From IMG/VR virus record IMGVR_UViG_2565956607_000008, positions 1 through 20,816 of that record: 20,816 bases of DNA; one strand, 5' to 3'. Every line of letters starts with the position of its first letter. Position 1 is the stretch's first letter. Positions 1 to 17,010 of the stretch are shown here, piece by piece. The position numbers were made by a program, and so were the translations under genes. This DNA is from a virus (Duplodnaviria; Heunggongvirae; Uroviricota; Caudoviricetes). The notes beneath the pieces are model-generated. The model saw nothing but the letters and a program-made list of their open reading frames with translations. It was not told the DNA's origin and did no database searches.

Positions 1-387
1 TCACAGGTATTTGGTTTCAATACCCTTGTAAACAGTTCTAAGCGTGTCTTCAGGCACTTTACCCACCAGCCCACGCAACAACGACAACGTTATGTTTACC
101 TTACGCAATGTCTTTACATATCTGGCGTTCGTCCTCCAGATCTTCAATGTTTCGTCTTTATCGCTGTGGTATGCTTCTAAATTGCGTTCTGTGACGTGAT
201 ACGCCTCTGTTTTAAACTGCTCAACAGGAATTCCCCAATCGTTGCGTAACAGCGTTAAAACGCGACTACGTTCGTGATTTCCGGCTTTCCTTAATATGTC
301 GTCAAACTCTTTTGGGGTAAGCTTCCTGCCACTTAGTAGGATATCGCGTATATTCGCGGCGACCTGAGAGCGTGTAAGAGTGCTCAT
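1..387 (-). CDS. Hypothetical protein of the P4/CP4-like island (128 aa)
   Basis: Complete ORF; its start overlaps the stop of the upstream 64-aa gene (ATGA-type overlap at 384..387); same strand as the island integrase. No recognisable motif. Confidence 0.45.
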   Translation of the reverse strand: MSTLTRSQVAANIRDILLSGRKLTPKEFDDILRKAGNHERSRVLTLLRNDWGIPVEQFKTEAYHVTERNLEAYHSDKDETLKIWRTNARYVKTLRKVNITLSLLRGLVGKVPEDTLRTVYKGIETKYL

Positions 388-578
388 TTTCGTCCCCCCA
401 GAAATCTGTCGGCAAATTGATCAAGGCTGGAGGCAAGCCACACCCGGCGCTTGCGTCCATTGATGGTCTGATTTATATAGGGAGGAAAGCTTCGGATATA
501 TCGCTTTAACTGATAGAAGCGTGACAGACAGACGCCAAGATATTCTGCTGCGTCTTTAGCGGTCAGGTAATTAATCAT
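384..578 (-). CDS. Small HTH DNA-binding protein, AlpA/excisionase-like (64 aa)
   Basis: Translation MINYLTAKDAAEYLGV... resembles the N-terminal helix-turn-helix of AlpA/Xis-type phage regulators; sits in a P4-like island. Confidence 0.5.
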   Translation of the reverse strand: MINYLTAKDAAEYLGVCLSRFYQLKRYIRSFPPYINQTINGRKRRVWLASSLDQFADRFLGGRK

Positions 579-659
579 TTTATTCCCTTACTGTTGTACC
601 AAAATGTAATATGGAGGAGACTTCCTGTCTCCCCAAATTACTCTACAATTTTTGTGCGA

Positions 660-851
660 TTAAATCAGATCTATTACTAAGTAATCATCGCCAGAGGCAA
701 TGCCGATAGCTTTTCCACCGCTGGTGGATTTCACATCATAAACCCAGGTGCTGGTGCTCACCTTTTGTGGCTCTGATCTAATCAGTGCCGCGAAGGTTTC
801 AAAATCAACATGGGTTACGTTCAGCTTTTGATTGGTAGGTTTCAACTGCAT
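660..851 (-). CDS. Hypothetical small protein (63 aa)
   Basis: ORF on the island strand between two AlpA-like genes; weak ribosome-binding site; no motif recognised. Confidence 0.35.
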   Translation of the reverse strand: MQLKPTNQKLNVTHVDFETFAALIRSEPQKVSTSTWVYDVKSTSGGKAIGIASGDDYLVIDLI

Positions 852-899
852 TCTTAATACCTAATAACGTATTGTTTGTATCCTGTTTGTTTCTGTTCT

Positions 900-1091
900 T
901 TAGTTACTACGCGATTCGGCTATACGTTGATCGATCCAGTCATCGATCTCGCTTTCAATAAAAGCTATTGCGCGAGCACCAATCTTGACTGATTGGGGGA
1001 ATTGTCCTCGGCTCATCAGAGCATATACCCACGCCTTGCTATAGCCAGTGCGTTTCAAAACCTCAGATAGCCGAATCAGCGACTTTTTCAT
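900..1091 (-). CDS. alpA: AlpA-family prophage transcriptional regulator (63 aa)
   Basis: Translation MKKSLIRLSEVLKRTGYSKAWVYALMSRGQFPQSVKIGARAIAFIESEIDDWI is the typical AlpA (CP4-57 regulatory protein) HTH pattern; typical position near a P4-type integrase. Confidence 0.7.
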   Translation of the reverse strand: MKKSLIRLSEVLKRTGYSKAWVYALMSRGQFPQSVKIGARAIAFIESEIDDWIDQRIAESRSN

Positions 1092-1247
1092 ATCTACCTC
1101 GTAATACGTTGCTTGACTATGTGAGATAGTAAATCATTGTTTTTTTAAGTTTTCTGTGAATTTGGAGAAAAAATTTTTGGGAATAGAATTACCCCAAATT
1201 GGGCGTTATTTTTTAGTTCTAACGCACAATTTGGGAACATCCTTCCT

Positions 1248-2003
1248 TTATTTTGGACGCTTTTTGGTTGCTTTTTTCTTAAATTTGGGGGCGTACTTAT
1301 CCAAAGCGTTCGTTAGCAATCTCCGAAATGTATCTGGGTGGGTATCGCTGTCTTCATCGTTCCCGAATATTATGTTGTTTTCTATTACTTGGGCACTAAC
1401 CCTATTGATACTAAGGTTTCCTCCACTATGGAAATCTTTGCTTGATTCAAATAAGGCAATCGCCATTCCGGCGATCATCTTTAAAGCCGTATCTTTTCCT
1501 CTCCAGTTTTGTTCTCTTTCTACTTTTTTTGACAGTGCTCCAATTTCTGGTTCGTTATCTGGAACATTCATATCCAGTTCTGGGAAGAAGTTCACAACCT
1601 CGGAGCGCTTGAAATAAAACGAATCGTAAGACCCATACCAATCATCCTCATCATCGTGATATAAAAAGTCTTCCCCTTTCCTAACGTTGAAAGTCCCTTC
1701 TTCCCCCGGTATCGGGCTCTCCCTGTATTCATGCCCCATAGCCAGAAGACCTAAAAACTCCACACACTGCTTTTCAAAGTCGTCATTAGTTGTAAAACCT
1801 GATACCCAATCGAACTGATAAAAGCCCAGCCCCCCTAAAGTATCTGGTTTAGCTTTGCTCAATCTGTAGTTACTTAAGATAGCGGCAGCGATCATTCTTT
1901 CATTTTCATTGTTTAGTCTTGCCAGTTCGCTGATCAGATTACCAAACCAGATTTTATCTTCTGACTCGTTATAAAACGCATCTAGTCCTGTCATCTTAGT
2001 CAC
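1248..2003 (-). CDS. Hypothetical cargo protein of unknown function (251 aa), translationally coupled to the integrase
   Basis: Start overlaps the integrase stop by 8 nt (1996..2003); acidic central region; no motif recognised. The antisense ORF 1156..1617 is judged spurious. Confidence 0.55.
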   Translation of the reverse strand: MTKMTGLDAFYNESEDKIWFGNLISELARLNNENERMIAAAILSNYRLSKAKPDTLGGLGFYQFDWVSGFTTNDDFEKQCVEFLGLLAMGHEYRESPIPGEEGTFNVRKGEDFLYHDDEDDWYGSYDSFYFKRSEVVNFFPELDMNVPDNEPEIGALSKKVEREQNWRGKDTALKMIAGMAIALFESSKDFHSGGNLSINRVSAQVIENNIIFGNDEDSDTHPDTFRRLLTNALDKYAPKFKKKATKKRPK

Positions 2004-3282
2004 GGCGTGTTCTCCTTCCGAACTCGTAAGGGCTTATATGTATTTCTCGATTGGCGTCCAGATAATCTGCCCACCATTGAAGCATTAGTTTGCGCTCTTC
2101 TAAGTAATCAGCCTTGTGCTTGTAGGCTCTTTTAACGTCTTTATATTCTTTGTGGCTCATCTGGCGCTCTACTGCGTCCTCCTGCCACAAACCGGACTCC
2201 ATCAGGGAACTACAGGCTGTGGCACGGAATCCATGTCCAGTTACGTCCTCTTGCGTGTTATAGCCCATTAAGCGTAATGCCTTGTTTACCGTGTTTTCAC
2301 TCATCACGCCTTTGGTGTTTCTTTCATTCGGAAACACAACATCGTAGCTTCCGCTTAGTTCTCTCAACTGCTTTACAATAGAAACAGCCTGACGGCTAAG
2401 AAGCACGATATGTTCGTCTTTTCCCGTTTTTGTGCCACGGGTGGAAAACCTCACACCATCGATAGGCTCTCTTTTTTTAGGGATAATCCACTCAGCCCGA
2501 TCAAGGTCAAACTCTTTCCAACGGGCAAACCTTAACTCGCTTGAACGAACAAATGTCAACATGGTTAGCTCAATGGCAAGGCGGGTAAGAGGATTACCTT
2601 TAAAGCTGCCCAATCGAGTGAAAAAGTCTGGTAAATCTCTGGGATGTAGTGCGGCATGATGCTTAGTTTCATATTGCATTAACCGGACATCGAGATCATT
2701 CGTGATGATTTCTGTCTTAATGCCGCTCAGACGGGCGCTATGTATGATGTCCTTAACTCGTTGTTTAAGTCGGTTGGCTGTATCGTGTTTCCCGGCGTCA
2801 TCTACCTTCTTAAACAAAGGTAAAATTGTCATCGCCTCCAGTTTGCGAATATCCGAAGTGCCAATGTGAGGGAAAATATACATTTCAAGGCTTCTAAGTA
2901 CGCGTTTTCGTTGGTCTTCGTTCCACATCTGGTGGCTTTCAACCCATTGACGTCCTATTGTCTCAAAAGTGAATGCGCCTTTTTCTTCTGCTTTTGCTGC
3001 TCTTTGCTCTGCTTTGGGATCTATCCCCTTGACTAACAACTTTTTGGCGTTGTCTCGTTTTTCTCTGGCGTCTTGTAAGCTAATGGTTGGATATACACCA
3101 AAAGCAAGTCTGTCTTCTTTCTTATCTGATGGGCGGCGATACTTCATTCGCCAATACTTCGACCCGGTCTGGGATACTTCAAGATAAAGACCACCACCAT
3201 CAGACAATTTATAAGTTTTGTCTCGTGGCTTAGCTGCTTTGCACTGACGGTCTGTTAATTTGTTGAGGGTATTTCTGGACAT
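1996..3282 (-). CDS. int: Tyrosine site-specific integrase, P4/CP4-57 type (428 aa)
   Basis: N-terminal DUF4102-like arm-binding pattern (LTDRQCKAAKP...DGGGLYLEV...YWRMKYR), C-terminal catalytic region with HGFRAT and later Y; lies 165 bp from the 3' end of the tRNA on the same strand. Confidence 0.9.
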   Translation of the reverse strand: MSRNTLNKLTDRQCKAAKPRDKTYKLSDGGGLYLEVSQTGSKYWRMKYRRPSDKKEDRLAFGVYPTISLQDAREKRDNAKKLLVKGIDPKAEQRAAKAEEKGAFTFETIGRQWVESHQMWNEDQRKRVLRSLEMYIFPHIGTSDIRKLEAMTILPLFKKVDDAGKHDTANRLKQRVKDIIHSARLSGIKTEIITNDLDVRLMQYETKHHAALHPRDLPDFFTRLGSFKGNPLTRLAIELTMLTFVRSSELRFARWKEFDLDRAEWIIPKKREPIDGVRFSTRGTKTGKDEHIVLLSRQAVSIVKQLRELSGSYDVVFPNERNTKGVMSENTVNKALRLMGYNTQEDVTGHGFRATACSSLMESGLWQEDAVERQMSHKEYKDVKRAYKHKADYLEERKLMLQWWADYLDANREIHISPYEFGRRTRRD

Positions 3283-3446
3283 GTTGGGGGCACATATACA
3301 ATCGAACCAGCAATGCCCCTAATTATGCCCCATAGATTTACTTGATTTCAATAGACGGAAATGGACGTCATGAGAATAAAATCTCTTTATTTTTATATGT
3401 TTACATGGGATTTATAGACAATGGTAGACGTTGGTGTACAGCGGGA

Positions 3447-3521
3447 TGGTGTCCCCTGCAGGAATCGAACCTGCAATTAGCCCTTAGGAGGGGCTCGTTA
3501 TATCCATTTAACTAAGGGGAC
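3447..3521 (-). tRNA. argW: tRNA-Arg (anticodon CCU)
   Basis: Reverse complement folds by hand into a 75-nt cloverleaf: 7-bp acceptor stem GTCCCCT/AGGGGAC, D-arm GTTA/TAAC, anticodon stem AGCCC/GGGCT with loop CTCCTAA (anticodon CCT), T-arm GCAGG-TTCGATT-CCTGC, discriminator A, CCA end. Confidence 0.9.
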
Positions 3522-3716
3522 ATAGAACTCACTGATTTTTAAGCGTTCAGCTTGTGTTGCATGTTATCCTATCATTCCCCGTACCATCAAGCATTTCATT
3601 CCTTTTATTTCCTTTCCGTTCGCATCAATTCGCTTAGAAAATCACTTCGTTCACTTGCCATTGCGTACACATTGAGTACAGAATGCAGAATTTCAGTGTG
3701 TACAGGATACAGAGCC

Positions 3717-4892
3717 GTGGCCCTTAGTGATACCAAACTCCGTAGCATCAATGCTAAGCCATACAGCGGCGCAGCTGAGGTCACAGATGGTGACGGGCTA
3801 AGTGTACGCATAACTCCCACAGGCACGATCACATTCCAGTTTCGTTATCGCTGGAACGGTAAGCCCGTTCGTCTCTCCATTGGCCGCTATCCCGCTATGT
3901 CTCTCAAGGAGGCGCGCGTAGTCGTCGGTGAGATGCGCGAATTGTACCTCAAGGGACTAAACCCGAAAAATTATTTTGCCAAAGAAGATGGCGAGTTGAC
4001 TCTCAAAGAGTGCCTGGATCAGTGGTGGGGTAAGTATGTTGAAACGCTGAAGCCGAACACTCAGACGCTGTACAAGTCCGTTGTGTACAACACGATGTAC
4101 ACAGAATTCCCGGACGCTCCGGTAGTTAACATTCCTATTTCTGCATGGGTGCGTTTCTTTGATAAGCAGGAAAAGAAGAACAGCAAAAAGGCCAGAGTGC
4201 TTCTTCTACAGCTACGTTCTGTAATGAACTGGTGTATCAGCCGCCAGTTGATCCCATCGTGCGAGGTCCTGAAGCTTAGCGTTAAGAGCATTGGGAAAAA
4301 ACCTGATGTGGGTAGCCGAGTTCTCACATATACCGAGTTGGCAAAAATCTGGCTGGCGCTGGAGAATAACAAGATCGTGACTTCCAACAAGGTGCTTCAT
4401 CAGCTGCTTTTGCTTTGGGGAGCCAGGCTATCAGAGCTGCGTCTGGCTACCGCCAGTGAATTTAACATGGATGATCTTATCTGGACGACGCCAGGAGAGC
4501 ATTCCAAGATGGGTAACGTTATCCGTCGCCCGGTGTTTGGCCAGGTGAAACCTTTTGTTGAAAGGCTCCTCAATGCTGGAAATGATGTTCTGTTTCCCGG
4601 CCAGGAACTGGACAAGCCAATAGATCGCTCATCAGCTAATCTCTATATGAAAAAGTTAAGGAATAAAATTGATATCCCAGAATGGCGAACACATGACTTC
4701 AGGCGCTCGCTGGTGACAAATTTATCAGGTGAAGGGGTTATGCCCCACGTCACCGAAAAGATGTTGGGGCATGAGTTGGGAGGAGTGATGGCGGTGTATA
4801 ACAAGCACGATTGGCTGGTAGAACAGAAAGAAGCATATGAGCTATATGCAGATAAAATTTTTTGGCATGTCAAGAAAATAAATGACCAATAA
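3717..4892 (+). CDS. int: Tyrosine integrase of the lambdoid prophage (about 391 aa; GTG start proposed)
   Basis: The ORF track gives 3552..4892, but the conserved integrase N-terminus (ALSDTKLRSINAKP...DGDGLSVRI...FQFRYRWNGK) begins at an in-frame GTG at 3717 preceded by AGGA; C-terminal catalytic region has HDFRRS. Start choice is uncertain. Confidence 0.8.
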   Translation: MALSDTKLRSINAKPYSGAAEVTDGDGLSVRITPTGTITFQFRYRWNGKPVRLSIGRYPAMSLKEARVVVGEMRELYLKGLNPKNYFAKEDGELTLKECLDQWWGKYVETLKPNTQTLYKSVVYNTMYTEFPDAPVVNIPISAWVRFFDKQEKKNSKKARVLLLQLRSVMNWCISRQLIPSCEVLKLSVKSIGKKPDVGSRVLTYTELAKIWLALENNKIVTSNKVLHQLLLLWGARLSELRLATASEFNMDDLIWTTPGEHSKMGNVIRRPVFGQVKPFVERLLNAGNDVLFPGQELDKPIDRSSANLYMKKLRNKIDIPEWRTHDFRRSLVTNLSGEGVMPHVTEKMLGHELGGVMAVYNKHDWLVEQKEAYELYADKIFWHVKKINDQ

Positions 4893-4928
4893 CTTTAGAC
4901 GTAAGTATTGAATTCTCTGGGGTATGAA

Positions 4929-6245
4929 ATGGAAATGATATTTAATGAAGATAAAGATATTGAAAATGCATTGCAGTGGCTATCTAAAACTCTACCAGAA
5001 CCTAATTCATTGTTTGATAGAATGTGTCTGGCACAAGAGAGTTATATTAAAGAATCGGCCTTGAAGGTTAATATTGGAAAGGAATCGAAAATAGAATGGC
5101 ATGGATGTGATGTTGTCGCAGGTTTTTTCTCTCAAGCTAAATCCTATCTTGATAATCGACGTTCTTATGATATTTCAGCTGCATCTAAAATACTTCCTTG
5201 GGTGAAACAACTTGGTGTTAATGTTGAATATCTTAACAATATTCCAGGTGCGGTAGAACGTGCTAAAAGGATGTTGGAAAGTTATACCGTTTATCCGGAT
5301 AATGCATTGTTTGAATTAATATTAGCAGGAAATTATGCGGCTAAAGGTTTCGATGTTGAGTTTATACCTGAGCAGAAAGGAATAGCTAAAACTCCTGAGT
5401 TTAAATGTAGCTTTGATGGTAAGGCTCTTTTTGTTGTTGAATGCAAAAGATTAAAAAAGGGGCAATACGCCCAACAAGAGGAGTCGGCTCATTCAACAAG
5501 AGCTTCTTTTATTGAATCTCGTGTACATCTGAAAAGAATGAGTGTCTGGATGGATGTCACATATAAATGTGAAGTAAATGAAACACCGGACGATTATCTT
5601 TTAAAACATTTATGTAATTATTATGGGAAAGAATATTCCTGGAGTGATGACTACGGTAGTGGTTTTATAAAGCCTGCAAATTTGCGTAGGGTGAATGATG
5701 ATATTAAATTGAACGGTTCTCTATCATTACACACCAAATTGGCAAGACTAATTAAAACATCTCCACTCGATGGTGAGTTTTACAATGTTTATGCGTTTGG
5801 TCGACCAGATGAACGAGATCCACGTTTTTTCTCTAAAATTAATTATGCAACATTACTGACATGGCGAAATGTAAGCGAGGTGTCATTAGAAAACAGGTCC
5901 AGGCATATCACTAAACATTTAAAAGAAATTGAAGATCAAATATCAAATAATGGACTTGGTGTAGGGCATTTAGTTATTGATGCTGACGTACAAAAAGATG
6001 TCGCTGATAAACGGAGGGAAAAAAATATTGAGGCTGCACTTTCTTTCCGGATAAAGTCCAAGCTTGTTCGGTTAAATATTCATTATCTTGTTCCTCGTGT
6101 TGATGAAGATAATTCGTGGCTGGTGGACGAAACTCTTGAATTTTTCAGCGGTGACGAGTTGATTAGTCATTTGTTTCCTGAGGTGAAATTATTTTCAGGG
6201 ATGGAACTTTTTGAAAATGATTTGCCTGCATGGCATCAGAAATGA
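4929..6245 (+). CDS. AT-rich cargo protein with a PD-(D/E)xK nuclease-like motif (about 438 aa)
   Basis: ATG at 4929 preceded by GGGG (ORF track uses TTG at 4908). Residues GFDVEF...x...FVVECKRL give a D...ExK pattern. Immediately downstream of the integrase and followed by an intrinsic terminator. Confidence 0.6.
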   Translation: MEMIFNEDKDIENALQWLSKTLPEPNSLFDRMCLAQESYIKESALKVNIGKESKIEWHGCDVVAGFFSQAKSYLDNRRSYDISAASKILPWVKQLGVNVEYLNNIPGAVERAKRMLESYTVYPDNALFELILAGNYAAKGFDVEFIPEQKGIAKTPEFKCSFDGKALFVVECKRLKKGQYAQQEESAHSTRASFIESRVHLKRMSVWMDVTYKCEVNETPDDYLLKHLCNYYGKEYSWSDDYGSGFIKPANLRRVNDDIKLNGSLSLHTKLARLIKTSPLDGEFYNVYAFGRPDERDPRFFSKINYATLLTWRNVSEVSLENRSRHITKHLKEIEDQISNNGLGVGHLVIDADVQKDVADKRREKNIEAALSFRIKSKLVRLNIHYLVPRVDEDNSWLVDETLEFFSGDELISHLFPEVKLFSGMELFENDLPAWHQK

Positions 6246-7623: not shown

Positions 7624-8405
7624 ACAGCCTCCCCAAGCACCCAACGGAGTGCGCTCGCATACTCACCCTCGGCTGATTCCAGGGCTTTTGTGATTTCTTT
7701 GCGGGTTTTCAGGCGCGGCTTTGCCTCGCCGAGGATCTGACGCTGACGCCGGGCTTTTTCATGGCCGGTTGTGCCAGCAGTTGCCGCTTCGATTTCAGAT
7801 ACCTTCTCCCGCTGCTCTTCAGGTTTAAGCGATGCCAGCTGACGCGCCTGGGTAACAGTGACCGTTCCGGACTCCACTGCATCGCGAACAGCCTGGGTGG
7901 CATCCAGCAGTGACAGCGTTGCGCGTACGGTCTGGACACTCACGCCAAACATCAGCGCTAAATCGTCCTCGTCGTGCCCGCGCTCCAGCGCATCAGCCAT
8001 TTTCTTTGCTCGGCCCAGTGGCGTATCTGCTTGGCGGATTTCGTTAGCACTTACCATCGCCTGCGCCATGCGAACGGCGGAGCCACGTTTAGCGACTGCC
8101 GGAACCAGTAACGGTTCTTTACCCTCTTTCAACAGTCGCTTGTTGGCTTCCAGTGTATGGCGCACACGCTGGCGACCATCGACTACACAAGACAGCCCTG
8201 TTTCCGGGTCTTTCCAGACGATAATCGGCTCAAGAACGCCCTGATCCATGATGTTCAGCACCATTGCCTCGCTGATAGGCAGGTGGATACGCTCATCGTA
8301 AAGCGGGTGCGTTTTGTCCGTAACCAAGTGCAGGTTTTCAGGTTCGAACGTTAAAACATTCGTTTTGCCGCTGGCGCCGTATACCACCTTTGAGTCTTTA
8401 GCCAT
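7620..8405 (-). CDS. ParB-like nuclease domain protein (261 aa)
   Basis: VVDGRQRVRHTLEA resembles the ParB/sulfiredoxin-fold arginine motif; common in lambdoid early regions. Confidence 0.65.
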   Translation of the reverse strand: MAKDSKVVYGASGKTNVLTFEPENLHLVTDKTHPLYDERIHLPISEAMVLNIMDQGVLEPIIVWKDPETGLSCVVDGRQRVRHTLEANKRLLKEGKEPLLVPAVAKRGSAVRMAQAMVSANEIRQADTPLGRAKKMADALERGHDEDDLALMFGVSVQTVRATLSLLDATQAVRDAVESGTVTVTQARQLASLKPEEQREKVSEIEAATAGTTGHEKARRQRQILGEAKPRLKTRKEITKALESAEGEYASALRWVLGEAV

Positions 8406-8704
8406 CAGAGAGCCTCTACGTTACGGAAGCTGGTGGGGCAAATTGCTTTCAAATCGCGCATTGCTTCGAGGACATGCAGATTTGTGCGCTTCTTGGTGTG
8501 TCGCTCGGTCAGACGATCACACTCTTTCGCCCAGGATTTGACCTCTGCGAGAAGGGCGTCACGTTCGGTTCGCGTCTGGCGCAGAGCTACATTCGAAACA
8601 TCGAGGACGGTAGCCAGTTCCCTGATGATTGCTGCCTGTGCTGGTGGCATAGTTTGGGCTATTTCGTACGCCTGTTTAATAAGTTGATTTGCTGTCTTAG
8701 CCAT
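8405..8704 (-). CDS. Hypothetical protein, first gene of the early-left operon (about 99 aa)
   Basis: Internal ATG 8702..8704 with GGAGAA ribosome-binding site (MAKTANQLIKQAYE...); ATGA overlap with the ParB-like gene start. Confidence 0.5.
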   Translation of the reverse strand: MAKTANQLIKQAYEIAQTMPPAQAAIIRELATVLDVSNVALRQTRTERDALLAEVKSWAKECDRLTERHTKKRTNLHVLEAMRDLKAICPTSFRNVEAL

Positions 8705-9007
8705 CTTTTGTTCTCCATCTGACGCGCTGCAACGCGTAAATTTAGGGTGCAGCAACCCAACCCATGAGAGTGGGTGAATAGCTGGTTAAAATTTCTTGCT
8801 GATGGGGAGCCGCCACTGCAATGGCGGCACGTTAGTTCTCCACACAACGGAAAGAGCACTGAAGCACTGGAAACTCACTTGACTAACACAGTGCTTTTTC
8901 CTGTTGTGTGCCGGGCTTCCACCGGCTCCCATCTGTTTTTAAAGCCACTCAGATATCGTCTGGGCTGCGTCGTCTCCGTGCATCACACGTTTTCGCGACC
9001 GCTGAAA

Positions 9008-9067
9008 TAAATCTAAAATAATTTAGTTTTTTGGTCAAGGTGAATAAACTAAATATTCTTAGTTTTC
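9008..9067. promoter_or_regulatory. Putative left operator/promoter region (OL/pL)
   Basis: Two 14-bp near-palindromes CTAAAATAATTTAG (9013..9026) and CTAAATATTCTTAG (9049..9062) sharing half-sites with the OR repeats; a leftward TTGACC / TAGATT-like promoter overlaps them. Confidence 0.45.
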
Positions 9068-9092
9068 ACCATTGATAGAGTAGAGGAAAGGA

Positions 9093-9737
9093 TTAGCGGC
9101 GCATCTGGCGGCGGTGTTCGACAACGACACCGATGATGGAAATTTTTTCAACAGCAGAGTTTAAAGCAGCAAAATCAGGGTTTAACGGGACCAATTCGAA
9201 AACCTCTTCACCATTTTCGTTGACACCCCTTGCACGGTATTTTTTAAAAGTGGCGTATTCACTACCGTTTTTGGCTACAACATAGTCCCCAGGACCTGGA
9301 CACAAGTCAGGATCCACAATGATAGTGTCTCCCTCTTTGAACTCTGGCTCCATAGATTTTCCACGTACCTTAAGAGCGAAGGTACCAAACGAATGAGCGC
9401 CGTTTGTTAAAATGTAATCCACGGCACCCTCTAAATTACGAGCATCACTTTCAGATGTCCAAGTTCCTGCTTGAACCCAACTTATGATAGGGATCTGCAT
9501 AGCGCCTAAGTTGCCAGGCGCTACATTGGAGAGTTCCTCTTTACCGGTGAGGAGAAAGTCCTCAGAAACACCAAAATACCGAGCTAATTTTGTCAGCGAG
9601 ACTCCTCCGGGTATGTTTTGGTCTTTCTCCCAGTATCCAATGGTGACATCTGTCACTCCAACAACTTTACCCAGTTGCTTCTGGGTAAGCTTACGATCCT
9701 TTCTTAATGATTTTAAACGACTTCCAAATGTGCTCAC
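9093..9737 (-). CDS. cI: CI-like prophage repressor (HTH_XRE N-terminus, S24 LexA-like peptidase C-terminus; 214 aa)
   Basis: N-terminal MSTFGSRLKSLRKDRKLTQKQLGKVVGV... HTH; C-terminal ...KVRGKSMEPEFKEGDTIIVDPD... Ser-Lys dyad region typical of autocleaving repressors; GTG start; divergent from cro. Confidence 0.85.
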   Translation of the reverse strand: MSTFGSRLKSLRKDRKLTQKQLGKVVGVTDVTIGYWEKDQNIPGGVSLTKLARYFGVSEDFLLTGKEELSNVAPGNLGAMQIPIISWVQAGTWTSESDARNLEGAVDYILTNGAHSFGTFALKVRGKSMEPEFKEGDTIIVDPDLCPGPGDYVVAKNGSEYATFKKYRARGVNENGEEVFELVPLNPDFAALNSAVEKISIIGVVVEHRRQMRR

Positions 9738-9760
9738 TGTGGTTCGCCATGTTATGAAAA

Positions 9761-9824
9761 CTAAATTATCTTAGCTTTAATTGACCTAAATTTGCTTTGG
9801 TCTTAATATCTAAATAAATTTAGG
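9761..9824. promoter_or_regulatory. Putative right operator region (OR) with three repressor-binding palindromes
   Basis: CTAAATTATCTTAG (9761..9774), CTAAATTTGCTTTGG (9786..9800), CTAAATAAATTTAG (9810..9823), spaced about 24 bp apart between the divergent cI and cro starts. Confidence 0.5.
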
Positions 9825-9831
9825 AGGGTGT

Positions 9832-10041
9832 ATGACAACAACAGAGTTAGAAACGTTCTTCGGAACCCCCAACAAGGCAGCAGACTTCTTCGGTGTTTCT
9901 CCTGAGGCTTTTTATCAATGGCGAAAACGACCGGGCAGTTTGATCCCAAAAGGTCGTGCTGCAGAAGCTGCATATCGTACTAATGGGCAGCTTGTTTTTC
10001 GACCTGAACTTTACCAAAAGGCTACAGATTCAGCTGCTTGA
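9832..10041 (+). CDS. cro: Cro-like small DNA-binding regulator (69 aa)
   Basis: ATG preceded by AGGAGG at 9821..9826; divergent from cI across the operator region; small basic HTH-like protein. Confidence 0.7.
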   Translation: MTTTELETFFGTPNKAADFFGVSPEAFYQWRKRPGSLIPKGRAAEAAYRTNGQLVFRPELYQKATDSAA

Positions 10042-10186
10042 AAGTAACTACAAATCGAATTTTAAAGGGGTAGGTGTGACAAAAAAAATTGAATCAGAGG
10101 TGATAAAGCGGTTGCAAGCGCTCAACCCTGAAACGGTAAGGCTGGATGAAATGAATCGAGTAGTGACTCTGATCGGGTGGACCTTA

Positions 10187-10510
10187 TCAGAAAAACTTCC
10201 AGACACCTATAGCGATGAGAACAAAGGCAAGGATATCGAACACGACTCCGATTCGCTTGGGATTTCTCGGGTAACAAGAAATGGTTGCTGTAACCCGACC
10301 GAGGCCGTCGTACTGGAGCATTTCCTGGTAGGGGTGGTTAATCCACTCACCAATGCCCCAAAAAAAGACGCCAAGGGAAACCAGTGCTGTAGGGCCAGGA
10401 GGATATGCAGAAAGAACTCCAGTACCGTTCAGCAGAAAAACGAATGCACCAGCGACAATCAAAACTTTGTACCAGTAGTCCAGAGTCAATTTAGACAAAG
10501 GGTTATTCAT
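10187..10510 (-). CDS. Small integral membrane protein (107 aa, about 3 predicted TM helices), possible moron
   Basis: Strongly hydrophobic segments with aromatic belts. The overlapping plus-strand ORF 9956..10546 translates to Cys/Arg-rich text typical of antisense noise. Weak ribosome-binding site, so uncertain. Confidence 0.4.
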   Translation of the reverse strand: MNNPLSKLTLDYWYKVLIVAGAFVFLLNGTGVLSAYPPGPTALVSLGVFFWGIGEWINHPYQEMLQYDGLGRVTATISCYPRNPKRIGVVFDILAFVLIAIGVWKFF

Positions 10511-10568
10511 TTAATACACCGGCTGTTCCGTGGGCTAAGAAAGTGATTTTAAGCGAAGGGTTATCAAC

Positions 10569-11036
10569 ATGGTAGAACAAAAGCAAAGTTTGAAAGATGT
10601 AGTCAAGGCTATGTGTAAGTCCATACATGGTGGGCGTGAGGCTATGGCTGGCGCGCTAGGCATGACCTTAACGCAGTTCAATAACAACCTTTATGAGAAA
10701 AATGGTTGTCGTTTCTTCGAAGTCAGCGAACTGGAAGCGATGGAGGACATTTCCAACACGTCGTTACTGGCTGACTACTTCGCTCGCCGTCGTGGTGCTC
10801 TGCTGGTGGATGTTCCGCACCTGGAAGAACTGGACCGCGTGGACTTATTTAGCCGGGCAATGCGTACCTCTGCCGCCAGGGGGCAGGTTGATCAGATTAT
10901 CGAACAGGCGCTTGAAGATGGCGTTATTGAAAGGCACGAGGCCGAAGAAATCATGGTGCATCACCGCCGTCACCTGGCAGCTCGTGAAGAAGAGATTGCC
11001 GCAATCATCACGCTTTTTTCACGCAAAAAGAAGTGA
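10569..11036 (+). CDS. CII-like phage regulatory protein (CP76/YdaT-like family; 155 aa)
   Basis: Position downstream of cro; N-terminal pattern (LKDVVKAMCKSIHGGREAMAGALGMTLTQFNN) recalled as the phage CP76-type CII family. Recollection, not a search. Confidence 0.6.
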   Translation: MVEQKQSLKDVVKAMCKSIHGGREAMAGALGMTLTQFNNNLYEKNGCRFFEVSELEAMEDISNTSLLADYFARRRGALLVDVPHLEELDRVDLFSRAMRTSAARGQVDQIIEQALEDGVIERHEAEEIMVHHRRHLAAREEEIAAIITLFSRKKK

Positions 11037-14606: not shown

Positions 14607-15068
14607 TTAAAAGCTTTTAAGATATTTGCTTTTGATTTTTTCACTAACACTTTGTAATTCATGCAGTGTTGTGCCAACTTTATCAGCTTCATATTTTGTG
14701 TCATTGGTACATGCTTGGCGCAACTCTGCTATGAAACCTGTATCTTTTGTGCGGCTTGCATCAAGGAGTTGAATGCGTTCACATATAAACTCAACATGCC
14801 GTACGGACGATGTAAATATGAAATAAGATACTCTTTTGTCTTTTTCTTTATTCTCAAGTAGTTCCAGCATTTCACTATAAATGAAATCTAACTTGTAAAA
14901 CAACTCGTCTATCAATCTGTTTATTTCAAGTTTTTTGAGATTGTTTGCATTATTTTTCCGCGCCAAGTAGGCAGTAACTATCCATCCAATGATAGTTAAA
15001 CATATGCCCACAATAGCAATTATGGTAGCTGGTAGTGCCCATAAATTTGGAGTAACGGCTTGTTCCAT
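14607..15068 (-). CDS. Cassette gene C: single-pass membrane protein with helical cytoplasmic domain (153 aa)
   Basis: N-terminal hydrophobic helix (LWALPATIIAIVGICLTIIGWIVTAYLA) then charged helical region; 1-nt TAATG overlap with gene B; GAGGGATG ribosome-binding site; AT-rich. Confidence 0.7.
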   Translation of the reverse strand: MEQAVTPNLWALPATIIAIVGICLTIIGWIVTAYLARKNNANNLKKLEINRLIDELFYKLDFIYSEMLELLENKEKDKRVSYFIFTSSVRHVEFICERIQLLDASRTKDTGFIAELRQACTNDTKYEADKVGTTLHELQSVSEKIKSKYLKSF

Positions 15069-15385
15069 TATTTGGCATCCCTCAGAGCATCATTGATATA
15101 AGTAACAACCTCGGCAACTAATGCCGGATCCTTACTTTTAAGATTTTTCTTTAGGTTGTTAATCTTATCTTTGCTGATTCCCTTTCGCACCAGTCCACCA
15201 AAGGCCTCCTCCAAAAATGAGGATCCATACCCGAAAACCCCGTCAAAGTCAACGCAAATTTCATCATTTTCCAGTATTGCAGGAACTAAATAAAATTCGC
15301 GGAATTTTTCGCCACTATTCTCTCCAAGCGACTCGTAGCGAGGGCCAGGATATCTGGAGAATTCCTTGATATATAAAGTTTTCAT
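15068..15385 (-). CDS. Cassette gene B: STAS-like (DUF4325-like) small protein (105 aa)
   Basis: VDFDGVFGYGSSFLEEAFGGL parallels the anti-sigma-factor-antagonist motif around the phosphorylatable serine; strong AAGGAGAAG ribosome-binding site; ATGA overlap with gene A. Confidence 0.7.
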   Translation of the reverse strand: MKTLYIKEFSRYPGPRYESLGENSGEKFREFYLVPAILENDEICVDFDGVFGYGSSFLEEAFGGLVRKGISKDKINNLKKNLKSKDPALVAEVVTYINDALRDAK

Positions 15386-16482
15386 GCCGCTTCTCCTTCA
15401 GTTGGTAGTGGCACACTCCACTCAACAATTGTACCATTGATGGATTTATGAGCATCCCACATCAATTCGGGCCTTGCTTTCTTCCTTTTAGTATATCTGT
15501 AGTTCCCCTTGTTTGATATGATTCTGAGTTGGGCATGTGTAAAATTATCTATAATTGATTGTAAATCCGTGCCGCCTTTCCCTCTGTAACCAAGTTTTGT
15601 TCTTGTGCGTTTAACCTGTAATGATGCTTTTATATGCTCTGAATCTAATTCAATAGGCTTGCCTATAATTTCAATAAGTTTTGATAAAACTCTTTCTCCT
15701 TGAGTTAATTTCAAAGTTTTGGGAATTCCAACTCCTAAATCGCATATGGATAAAATCAATTTATTATTCATTATTGCTGCAAAACACCACCATTTATTTT
15801 TAATGTTGTTCTTTTGCTTGTCGTATAGATCATCTCTATATGCGTGCTCTACCGAGTTGGACATCGCCTCAATTAGAGGTCTGTATAAATTAGTGTAATC
15901 CGTTCCCATTTTCTCAGTTACTGCTTCTAATAGTTTCCCAGCAATTGTAGAATCAACCAGTTCACCTCTAATAACCTCCCAGCACTTAACAGATGGGTTC
16001 TCTTTCATCTCTCGACCTTTTACCCCAAATGCAGAATATATACCAATACGGTTAAGTACGCTATCAACTACATGATGTTCGCCTTTCTGTGTAGTTTTGA
16101 ATGGAGGGCGAGTTACAGTGTATCTTATATCTGGATAGTTACTTTTTAAACTCTCCAGTTTTGCTAGTAAATATAATCCTGCAGCGGCCGATATGTAAAT
16201 CGTATTTCTGAAGCAAACATATATTTTTTGAGTTTTAAACTGCTCTTGCTTGGCTTTTTTTTCAATATTTTCAATAAAACTTATTACGTTGTCATGGTAA
16301 TTAGAGTTATAGATATCAAGAATAGTAGGTGCAACTATTTTTTCAGAATTTGATTTTCGTATGTTACCATTACGTTTGTATCTTTTGTGTTCGGTTGACT
16401 TTTTGCTTGCGTTTGCACGGAGAAACCTTTTTCTCCTTATTCTTTTTAACACTGAAGTATAGAGCTGTTCTATTTTTTTCAT
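15382..16482 (-). CDS. Cassette gene A: protein with basic N-terminal region and C-terminal GHKL/HATPase-like ATP-binding domain (366 aa)
   Basis: AAGGAG ribosome-binding site 8 nt upstream; N-box-like EAMSNSVEHAY (E205..N209..H213), G1-like CDLGVGI (D248xGxG), G2-like GYRGKGGTDL (about 299..308); AT-rich. Confidence 0.7.
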   Translation of the reverse strand: MKKIEQLYTSVLKRIRRKRFLRANASKKSTEHKRYKRNGNIRKSNSEKIVAPTILDIYNSNYHDNVISFIENIEKKAKQEQFKTQKIYVCFRNTIYISAAAGLYLLAKLESLKSNYPDIRYTVTRPPFKTTQKGEHHVVDSVLNRIGIYSAFGVKGREMKENPSVKCWEVIRGELVDSTIAGKLLEAVTEKMGTDYTNLYRPLIEAMSNSVEHAYRDDLYDKQKNNIKNKWWCFAAIMNNKLILSICDLGVGIPKTLKLTQGERVLSKLIEIIGKPIELDSEHIKASLQVKRTRTKLGYRGKGGTDLQSIIDNFTHAQLRIISNKGNYRYTKRKKARPELMWDAHKSINGTIVEWSVPLPTEGEAA

Positions 16483-16707: not shown

Positions 16708-16737
16708 TTGACTAACACAAAGTTTACAAATTAGATT
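16708..16737 (+). promoter_or_regulatory. Putative late promoter (pR'-like)
   Basis: TTGACT (16708..16713), 17-18 bp spacer, TTAGAT/TAGATT (16731..16737); upstream of a non-coding leader ending in terminators before the lysis genes. Sequence-only prediction. Confidence 0.3.
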
Positions 16738-17010
16738 ATCGACATGGTGAATCCCCCTATGCGGTGGGGCGACCAGTCACTTACAGTGATCTGTAAATGC
16801 AGCGCGGGCCATGTCGACTGGGACATGCTCACCGGGAGGCACCCGGCACCATACAATGCTACTAAGCTATTTGGTAGTGGGGTTGCCGTTTCGGCTTCTC
16901 CAGCTATGTTTAAAAGGTAGTAACGGAAAACGAGCGCTCTCCTGGTAAATCGGTAGCTCGGACTATTAGGTGCGCCTCGTTCCGTTGCAGAATCAGTATT
17001 GCCTACCTTC

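Follow-up and report, generated by a model that had tools for sequence, protein, structure and literature searches.

An immunity region resembling that of P22

The leftward operator (OL) of phage lambda has three sites and lies 2.4 kb from the rightward operator (OR), with rexA and rexB between the two. The lambda operators are 17 base pairs (bp) long and have their symmetry axis on a base pair (PMC6649833). In the Salmonella phage P22 the operator consensus is ATTTAAGATATCTTAAAT, in which TTAAG half-sites are placed 4 bp apart (PMC5175364), and in every lambdoid switch studied CI and Cro use the same operators (PMC6649833). Here we describe the immunity region of a 20,816-nucleotide (nt) stretch of viral DNA (Caudoviricetes; IMG/VR record IMGVR_UViG_2565956607_000008, positions 1 to 20,816), which is referred to as the window. 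Five dyad-symmetric sites with the consensus A-N-CTAAR-N4-YTTAG-N-T surround its cI repressor gene (9093-9737, minus strand), two of them just downstream of cI and three between cI and cro (9832-10041, plus strand). These sites very probably serve the prophage repressor CI as operators, and by analogy Cro as well, in a lysis/lysogeny switch of the P22 immC type that belongs to a lambdoid prophage. Judged by sequence, the closest model for the region is P22 immC and not lambda. The kind of system is textbook and nothing in the switch challenges current understanding; the operator specificity is new, and none of the papers searched describes it. A full-text literature search for four operator sequences returned no paper, related searches yielded other switches only, and for Klebsiella phage switches the literature found was confined to N15, PY54 and phiKO2, telomere phages with different sites.

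Positions and statistics of the five sites

An initial annotation, made from the letters of the window, had reported five operator-like palindromes flanking cI. All five are present where it placed them, and both the statistics and the conservation in 20 relatives described below bear them out. OL1 occupies 9011-9028 (18 bp, ATCTAAAATAATTTAGTT) around a core at 9013-9026 (CTAAAATAATTTAG); it is a perfect match to the dyad, is found in 20/20 relatives and lies in the spacer and -10 element of the leftward promoter PL. OL2 (9047-9064, 18 bp, AACTAAATATTCTTAGTT; core 9049-9062, CTAAATATTCTTAG) is just upstream of the PL -35 element, with its centre at about -52 from the PL start. On the other side of cI, OR3 (9759-9776, 18 bp, AACTAAATTATCTTAGCT; core 9761-9774, CTAAATTATCTTAG) ends 4 nt from the -35 element of the rightward promoter PR, the weak OR2 (9784-9801, 18 bp, ACCTAAATTTGCTTTGGT) overlaps that element and lies in the PR spacer, and OR1 (9808-9825, 18 bp, ATCTAAATAAATTTAGGA; core 9810-9823, CTAAATAAATTTAG) spans the predicted PR start and extends into the Shine-Dalgarno sequence of cro. 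OR2 had been listed as 9786 to 9800; the dyad is there, but its core spans 9786-9799 (CTAAATTTGCTTTG) and its right half (GCTTTG) is degenerate. The OR centres, at 9767.5, 9792.5 and 9816.5, are 25 and 24 bp apart, the OL centres are 36 bp apart, and OL1 and OR1 are separated by about 800 bp (centres 9019.5 and 9816.5). The proposed grouping into an OL-like pair and an OR-like triplet at about 24-bp spacing is thus upheld, and it agrees with the promoter overlap and the recognition-helix co-variation presented in the following sections.

Matches to the dyad are confined to the flanks of cI. The sequence CTAAANNNNTTTAG, with up to one mismatch, occurs four times in the window, always at these flanks, as compared to 0.86 expected occurrences. 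The family consensus CTAARNNNNYTTAG has four perfect matches in the window, each of them one of the operator sites, and OR2 differs from it by a single mismatch; an additional 37 kb, taken from this prophage and the chromosome beside it, contain no perfect match, so that in about 58 kb in total the perfect matches remain beside cI, and a similar density of the motif through the window is not seen. When the two AT-rich intergenic stretches only (GC 0.30) were subjected to dinucleotide shuffling, the presence of two sites with at most one mismatch in each intergenic region gave P = 1e-4 and 1.5e-4. A position weight matrix gives the five sites 18.6-24.0 bits, and the runner-up in the window reaches 13.4, a comparison that is circular because the matrix was trained on the same sites; within it OR2 scores 18.6 bits and the other four sites 21-24. 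The bare half-site CTAAAT is not enriched in the window (18 found, 12.5 expected), and the signal therefore resides in the dyad arrangement and its clustering. A third OL dyad with up to two mismatches was sought between OL2 and the cI stop codon and was found neither in the window nor in the 20 relatives.

Operators are interlaced with the predicted promoters

A sigma-70 consensus scan finds only two good promoters beside cI, PR and PL, and each is interlaced with operator sites. The PR -35 element TTGACC (9781-9786, plus strand) is 99% conserved and, as in P22, stands 4 nt from OR3 and overlaps OR2; after a 17-bp spacer it is followed by the -10 element TAATAT (9804-9809, plus strand), whose TA..AT pattern is kept in all relatives, and transcription is predicted to start near 9816 on the plus strand, inside OR1. 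On the minus strand, the scan places a PL -35 element TTGACC at 9033-9038, where CTTGAC is conserved in the relatives and both the hexamer and its placement are identical in P22, and a -10 element TAGATT at 9010-9015, where the relatives keep TTTAGATT; the 17-bp spacer is that of the annotated P22 PL, and the minus-strand start would lie near 9003.

A candidate -10 element for the maintenance promoter PRM, TAAGAT (9768-9773, minus strand), lies inside OR3, at bases 10-15 of the 18-mer, the offset at which the annotated P22 PRM promoter has this hexamer as its -10 end; it is kept as TAARAT in the relatives. We place PRM provisionally, by P22 homology only. A lambda-like PRM with OR2 centred at -42 was rejected, as its start would fall at about 9750 and no acceptable -10 element goes with it.

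Conservation among relatives

The footprint set was drawn from IMG/VR, because no close CI relative was found in a species-representative genome collection, where the best match has 45% identity. Among 80 fetched IMG/VR loci, 42 encode a CI at least 66% identical to that of the window (66-100%), and these reduce to 20 distinct flank versions, which are the relatives referred to throughout. Exactly five dyads, in the same places, occur in 20/20 of them; the OR spacing is 24/25 bp in all 20, and OL1 and OL2 are 34-36 bp apart. Averaged over columns, conservation is 0.92 in OR3, 0.99 in the PR -35 element, 0.80 in OR2 and 0.91 in OR1, and falls to 0.58 in the stretch from OR3 to the cI start. In a matrix of 98 half-sites, C3, A5 and A6 are invariant (98/98 each), R7 is found in 89, T4 in 84 and A1 in 80, with N at position 2 and W at the two positions after R7. 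Position 1 is conserved (A in 80/98, as in P22) even though it was not used in finding the sites, which supports a site of 18 bp.

The weak OR2 raises the question of whether there are only four operators and 9786-9799 is a stray half-site in the PR spacer that no dimer binds. This is suggested by its degenerate right half, which is variable even among close relatives, by its score and by its overlap with the conserved PR -35 element. Yet a dyad with at least one perfect half stands 24 and 25 bp from its neighbours in 20/20 relatives. The half that is intact differs among them (CTAAATTTGCTTTG, CAAAAATAGTTTAG, CTAAAAAAGATTAG) and several have two good halves, as in CTAAAAAAGATTAG and CTAAATTAGGTTAG, and OR2 of P22 is in the same place relative to the -35 element. 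A weak middle site that is filled cooperatively is, moreover, the rule in lambda and P22 (outlined in PMC6649833). We therefore regard the four-operator alternative as unlikely. The conservation pattern of OR2 is the one expected for a weak site held by selection.

CI, Cro and the specificity of the sites

The proteins encoded on either side of OR are those of a lambdoid switch. CI (214 residues, GTG start) has an N-terminal helix-turn-helix domain (Pfam HTH_3, E 6.7e-13, residues 8-62) and a C-terminal Peptidase_S24 domain (E 4e-20), is assigned to phrog_4 and is 35% identical to P22 C2 over its full length (E 4e-31). The best solved-structure match of its N-terminal domain is the DNA-binding domain of P22 c2 (1adr, E 2e-10), and in the PDB its C-terminal domain is matched by that of lambda CI. 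Its VQAG (Ala90-Gly91), GKSM (Ser128) and TFKK (Lys165) segments align with VQAG, GNSM and TFKK of lambda CI. CI is thus predicted to be a repressor of the CI/LexA type, with a helix-turn-helix domain, an S24 domain, a Ser/Lys dyad and an Ala-Gly cleavage motif. The recognition helix, TDVTIGYWEK, is essentially invariant across the relatives, as [TS]DVT[IV]GYWE[KR]. Cro (69 residues) starts at an ATG 9 nt after the OR1 core, behind a strong Shine-Dalgarno sequence (AGGAGG, 9822-9827). It scores 35.2 bits against Pfam P22_Cro (PF14549; cut-off 30.2) and is 28% identical to P22 Cro; its best sequence match in the PDB, a weak one, is N15 Cro (2hin, E 0.007). Its recognition helix PEAFYQW is also essentially invariant, with a single Q-to-L change in one relative.

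As a control of specificity, we inspected CI homologues that are 40-47% identical to the window CI and have different recognition helices. Their loci contain no CTAAR dyads and have their own 5+4+5 dyads upstream of cI: the helix QQSYQAIE is accompanied by three ACAGT-N4-ACTGT sites about 22-23 bp apart, and the P22-like helix S[HN][GV][SA]ISQWE by TTAAG-N4-CTTAA sites. Because distant homologues with other helices carry other dyads, the dyad type tracks the CI recognition helix. The distant CI homologues that show such clear-cut triplets ahead of cI are those of loci L005-L012 and L116-L117 (Gilliamella) and of loci L108, L111, L113, L125 and L135. These distant loci form a ready-made data set for the co-variation of recognition helix and operator.

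The sites might be recognised mainly by Cro, or by another regulator such as a host nucleoid protein or a different helix-turn-helix protein of the phage, instead of the S24 repressor. The invariance of the Cro recognition helix among the relatives is compatible with the first of these proposals, and the AT-rich region could attract nucleoid proteins. The dyad type, however, co-varies with the recognition helix of CI, and the site geometry is that of the P22 c2 complex; Cro binding is also expected in addition to that of CI and not in its place, as the two proteins share operators. We consider this proposal highly improbable.

Still less credible is that the palindromes are by-products of AT-rich promoter DNA, that is, of -10-like TAAAT/TAGAT strings and A/T tracts resembling UP elements, conserved as parts of promoters. 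In its favour, the sites share DNA with the -10, spacer and upstream parts of PR, PL and the candidate PRM, the intergenic DNA has a GC content of 30%, and bare CTAAAT shows no window-wide enrichment. Shuffles that preserve local dinucleotides nevertheless give P ~1e-4 per region, and both halves of the dyads are conserved, including halves that lie outside promoter elements (the left half of OR3, OL2, and the right half of OR1). Such an origin would also not account for relatives that swap the intact half of OR2, or for distant homologues whose dyads follow the recognition helix.

Comparison with P22 and other described switches

The window shares with P22 immC the order PL/OL, repressor, PRM/OR/PR and cro, OL following immediately on the repressor gene. 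In both, the operators are 18 bp long and consist of 5-bp half-sites 4 bp apart, with the symmetry axis between base pairs. The boundaries of the P22 operators were read from the sequence within the OR1-3 and OL1-3 binding features of the P22 record (locus L145), and on this basis the relative positions of OR3, the -35 element, OR2 and OR1, as well as those of OL1, the -35 element and OL2, agree within 1 bp. Thus, OR3 at 3665-3682 of the P22 record corresponds to 9759-9776 of the window, the PR -35 element at 3687-3692 to 9781-9786, OR2 at 3690-3707 to 9784-9801, and OR1 at 3713-3730 to 9808-9825; on the left, OL1 at 2894-2911 corresponds to 9011-9028, the PL -35 element (GGTCAA on the plus strand) at 2916-2921 to 9033-9038, and OL2 at 2929-2946 to 9047-9064. 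The OR centres are 25 and 23 bp apart in P22 as compared to 25 and 24 bp in the window prophage, and OL1-OL2 spacing is 35 bp as compared to 36. In both phages OR3 is 4 nt from the PR -35 element, OR2 overlaps this element, TAAGAT stands at the identical offset in OR3, and OL1 is 4 nt from the PL -35 element. The valine of the P22 recognition helix is also retained in the window CI.

The differences from P22 concern chiefly specificity. The half-site is TTAAG in P22 and CTAA(A/G) in the window family, with C3 in place of T3 and A/G7 in place of G7, and the recognition helix is SNVAISQWER in P22 and TDVTIGYWEK in the window CI. P22 OR3 abuts the ATG of c2, for which the record annotates a 4-nt leader, whereas the corresponding gap in the window is ~21-25 nt. 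No N-like gene 24 or annotated nutL follows the window PL, and the cII analogue is of the CP76/YmfL type. As C3 is invariant in 98/98 half-sites, the window phage is probably heteroimmune to P22; its CTAAR half-site and TDVTIGYW helix place it, by comparison of the two sequences, outside the P22 immunity group, although it would work like P22.

The lambda OL/OR layout invoked in the initial annotation holds in part. Lambda has the same divergent cI and cro genes, three OR sites about 24 bp apart, operators on either side of cI on PR and PL, and an S24 C-terminal domain with an Ala-Gly cleavage site and a Ser/Lys dyad; the precise template, by geometry and spacings, is P22 immC. In contrast to lambda, OL1 and OR1 are only ~800 bp apart in the window, and cI starts with GTG behind a predicted leader. 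The Shiga-toxin phage 933W has the same number of operators, three in OR and two in OL, its natural operators comprising 10 half-sites (PMC3317979). Its operator sequence and repressor are unrelated in specificity, and its repressor is reported to bind non-cooperatively (PMC3317979). The 14-bp operators of phage 434 (ACAA-N6-TTGT) are likewise short dyads of similar overall size, and the Gilliamella CI relatives that carry ACAGT-N4-ACTGT triplets have a 434-like helix (QQSYQAIE). The 434 half-site and recognition helix differ from those of the window, however, and the conserved outer A/T argues for an 18-bp site as in P22 and not for a 14-bp one. Finally, the Pro-x-Ala-x-Tyr-Gln pattern of the window Cro recognition helix is that of the all-helical Cro proteins of N15 and the Cordes type, whereas the N15 consensus site TTATAGCTAGCTATAA is unlike the window sites.

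The window provides an operator consensus and promoter map for an immunity group present in Klebsiella and some E. coli prophages, from which mutually excluding prophages can be predicted and which aids the annotation of switches labelled 'LexA family protein' or 'hypothetical'. It also provides a repressor/operator pair that differs from that of P22 at a single invariant half-site base (T to C, position 3). This pair could be used in a study of specificity shift, with the helix changes N to D, A to T, S to G and Q to Y, or as an orthogonal genetic part.

Proposed operation of the switch

The existence of the sites, their non-randomness and conservation, the promoter overlap, the protein homologies and the identity of geometry with P22 were computed, whereas binding, the order in which the sites are filled, cooperativity, the positions of the transcript starts and induction are inferred. 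Dimers of CI would bind each A-N-CTAAR-N4-YTTAG-N-T site through the helix-turn-helix. When bound to OR1 and OR2, CI would block PR and keep cro and the rightward early genes off, and when bound to OL1 and OL2 it would block PL and silence the leftward early operon. The weak OR2 would probably be filled cooperatively through the C-terminal domain of CI. Binding of Cro, or of excess CI, to OR3, which holds the likely PRM -10 element, would turn cI off. Upon DNA damage, RecA would stimulate self-cleavage of CI at Ala90-Gly91 by Ser128/Lys165, leading to induction. Translation of cI would be weak, from a PRM message with a short leader, a GTG start and no Shine-Dalgarno sequence.

Several points weigh against the assignment of the five dyads as operators of such a switch. 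OR2 is a poor dyad in the window, and the PR -35 element and spacer, with which it overlaps, could account for part of its conservation. Only two sites are present at OL, as compared to three in P22 and lambda; of the P22 sites, OL3 is a weak one. The candidate PRM -10 element has no -35-like hexamer beside it, and the promoter scan finds no leftward promoter in OR. Part of the conservation of OL2 may serve another purpose, as this site is located within a longer covarying palindrome that is described below. The fit to Cro is partial: in the 'evolutionary code' for Cro, Pro at helix position H1 goes with T2, Ala at H3 with A5 and Gln at H6 with G6 (PMC6649833), so that the helix PEAFYQ predicts T, A and G at half-site positions 2, 5 and 6, whereas the sites show C, A and A/G in a P22-based register that is our own assumption.

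The cI start and leader

The GTG at 9737 is the only plausible start of cI, as the helix-turn-helix begins at residue 8 and there is no in-frame alternative upstream. It lacks an obvious Shine-Dalgarno sequence, as initially noted: the best pairing of the upstream 25 nt with the anti-Shine-Dalgarno sequence yields no more than -1.9 kcal/mol, as compared to -10.7 kcal/mol for cro. The accompanying suggestion of a 'leaderless or weakly initiated' transcript divides at this point, since the pairing energy agrees with weak initiation, whereas the 18-bp OR3 is separated from the start codon by 21 nt. A PRM leader of ~25 nt is predicted at 9738-9762 on the minus strand (AGUUUUCAUAACAUGGCGAACCACA), without a usable Shine-Dalgarno sequence; its 5' end is placed near 9762 by homology, as the annotated P22 RM transcript begins with the fourth base of OR3. 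The lambda PRM cI mRNA is leaderless and begins with AUG. For the translation of leaderless messages an AUG at the 5' terminus is of great importance, and a message with a GUG start would lack it.

Relatives of the window differ in how cI is initiated. In the more distant of them (CI ~66-89% identical; L088 and L093-L105), the gap contains a Shine-Dalgarno sequence (AGGTGG, GAGGAA, AAGGG or GGAGGG) with pairing energies of -3.4 to -10.7 kcal/mol. The start codon is GTG, ATG or TTG, and TTG starts are paired with strong Shine-Dalgarno sequences (-6.4 to -10.7 kcal/mol). A leaderless cI mRNA was rejected in view of the GTG start, the 21-nt gap, the Shine-Dalgarno sequences in the gap of distant relatives and the P22-homologous PRM start near 9762. 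A message that is leadered and weakly initiated fits better. An out-of-frame ATG at 9750 opens a 19-codon reading frame that overlaps the cI start (9694-9750, minus strand); it was also discarded, being present in close relatives and replaced by CTG in L090 and L091, and this reading frame is probably fortuitous.

A predicted hairpin around OL2

OL2 forms the top of an extended palindrome of 32 nt (9039-9070, minus strand) that lies 22 nt after the cI stop codon and directly upstream of the PL -35 element. Its form is GGTGAAAA-[operator]-TT(TA)TTCACC, and no such extension is found at the other four operators. The outer arms covary among relatives (GTG/CAC, ATG/CAT, CAG/CTG, TGG/CCA), which was read directly from the sequences because the MAFFT alignment set two arm registers out of phase. 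In most relatives the RNA fold of this hairpin has an energy of ~-9 to -12.6 kcal/mol, and relatives in which it is weak have a distinct GC hairpin in its place, as does P22. The 21-nt tract after the cI stop averages 45% C and 7% G over the 20 relatives, though its sequence diverges. No U-tract follows the hairpin on either strand, and it is therefore not a canonical intrinsic terminator.

From these features one could propose that 9049-9062 serves first of all as the apex of an RNA hairpin by which the cI transcript is ended or stabilised, and that its likeness to an operator is secondary. The covarying arms are peculiar to OL2 and are positioned behind a C-rich, G-poor tract, and the separate GC hairpin of relatives with a weak version is at the same place. 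The central 14 bp, however, keep the operator consensus in all relatives, even in those without the outer stem (L099, L100 and L102-105), OL2 of P22 has the same distance from OL1 and the PL -35 element, and a U-tract is lacking. A primarily structural role thus appears improbable. Operator and hairpin roles are not mutually exclusive, and OL2 may have both. As a tentative and rather doubtful proposal, it could act as a CI site in DNA and, in RNA, as a non-canonical 3'-end or termination element of the cI transcript, Rho-dependent or assisted by a roadblock, that blocks read-through into the PL operon, given that the maintenance transcript from PRM otherwise runs in the same direction as PL. 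If true, repressor occupancy and the insulation of lytic genes would be coupled in one element.

Prophage context and neighbouring features

The 1.2 kb around the immunity region (8900-10100) are 100% identical to the chromosome of E. coli p10A, in which the RefSeq annotation shows a lambdoid prophage adjoining tRNA-Arg. Its gene order is integrase, early-left genes, cI (labelled 'LexA family protein'), cro ('Cro/CI family regulator'), a CII/YmfL-type regulator, replication genes, Dam, Q, lysis genes and HK97-like structural genes; in the database records the immunity proteins carry no label beyond 'LexA family protein' or 'hypothetical'. Among phage records, those of the Klebsiella phages vB_VIPKPNMC05 (98% identity) and Kp4866-6 (81%) are the closest. 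Most of the region is present in 9 of 5426 complete E. coli genomes, the prophage relatives are mainly from Klebsiella, and many of the prophage protein accession numbers are common with Klebsiella, which suggests a recent transfer from this genus.

Within the window, positions 1-3400 are host DNA (csc sucrose genes), and a tRNA-Arg gene (3450-3521, minus strand) adjoins a tyrosine integrase gene (3717-4892, plus strand), which marks the prophage attachment site. The distal end of the prophage in p10A (locus L148, 1403000-1440000; locus coordinates ~24900-27700) abuts copies of IS26 and ISKpn26 that disrupt wcaM. Directly after the integrase, 4908-6245 encodes a 445-residue protein without a family match and without a PADLOC match.

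Some 300 nt (8705-9003, minus strand) separate PL from the first annotated leftward gene. This stretch has no annotated gene and folds well (z = -3.1), and its blocks 8700-8862 and 8831-8976 recur at 95-98% identity in Klebsiella phages with different repressors (heteroimmune); in the two annotated records inspected, the block is located in the early-left operon. Small open reading frames in it have no family match, and Rfam searches (at gathering thresholds, and up to E of 1 over 8600-10600) gave no match in the immunity region or the PL leader. The stretch might be a cis-acting leader RNA, possibly one for antitermination, or contain small unannotated genes. An N-like antiterminator downstream of PL was rejected, as the product of the first PL gene (8405-8704, 99 residues, phrog_15091) lacks an arginine-rich motif and the small reading frames of the leader match no family.

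Between cro and cII lies a reverse-oriented gene (10187-10510, minus strand) for a hydrophobic, membrane-like protein of 107 residues, which has no Pfam, PHROG or PADLOC match and which looks like a moron, that is, an extra gene carried as prophage cargo. Only few relatives carry the gene, and the protein is 48-56% identical in L093 and L096. An overlapping plus-strand open reading frame with a Shine-Dalgarno sequence and GTG start (10076-10546) was rejected at 27-29% identity; as the minus frame is the better conserved, the RefSeq call on the minus strand is right. A second reverse-oriented insertion, a three-gene cassette encoding proteins of 153, 105 and 366 residues (14607-16482, minus strand), is located between the Q gene and holin, an interval in which cargo or defence genes are commonly located. 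The reverse-oriented cassettes have no PADLOC match, and the sole Pfam domain in the three-gene cassette is a DUF4325 (STAS-like) domain in the 105-residue protein. The stretch 16715-16907 (plus strand), flanked by the Q antiterminator region and the lysis genes, matches the Rfam small RNA STnc100 at 76 bits, as compared to a gathering score of 47.

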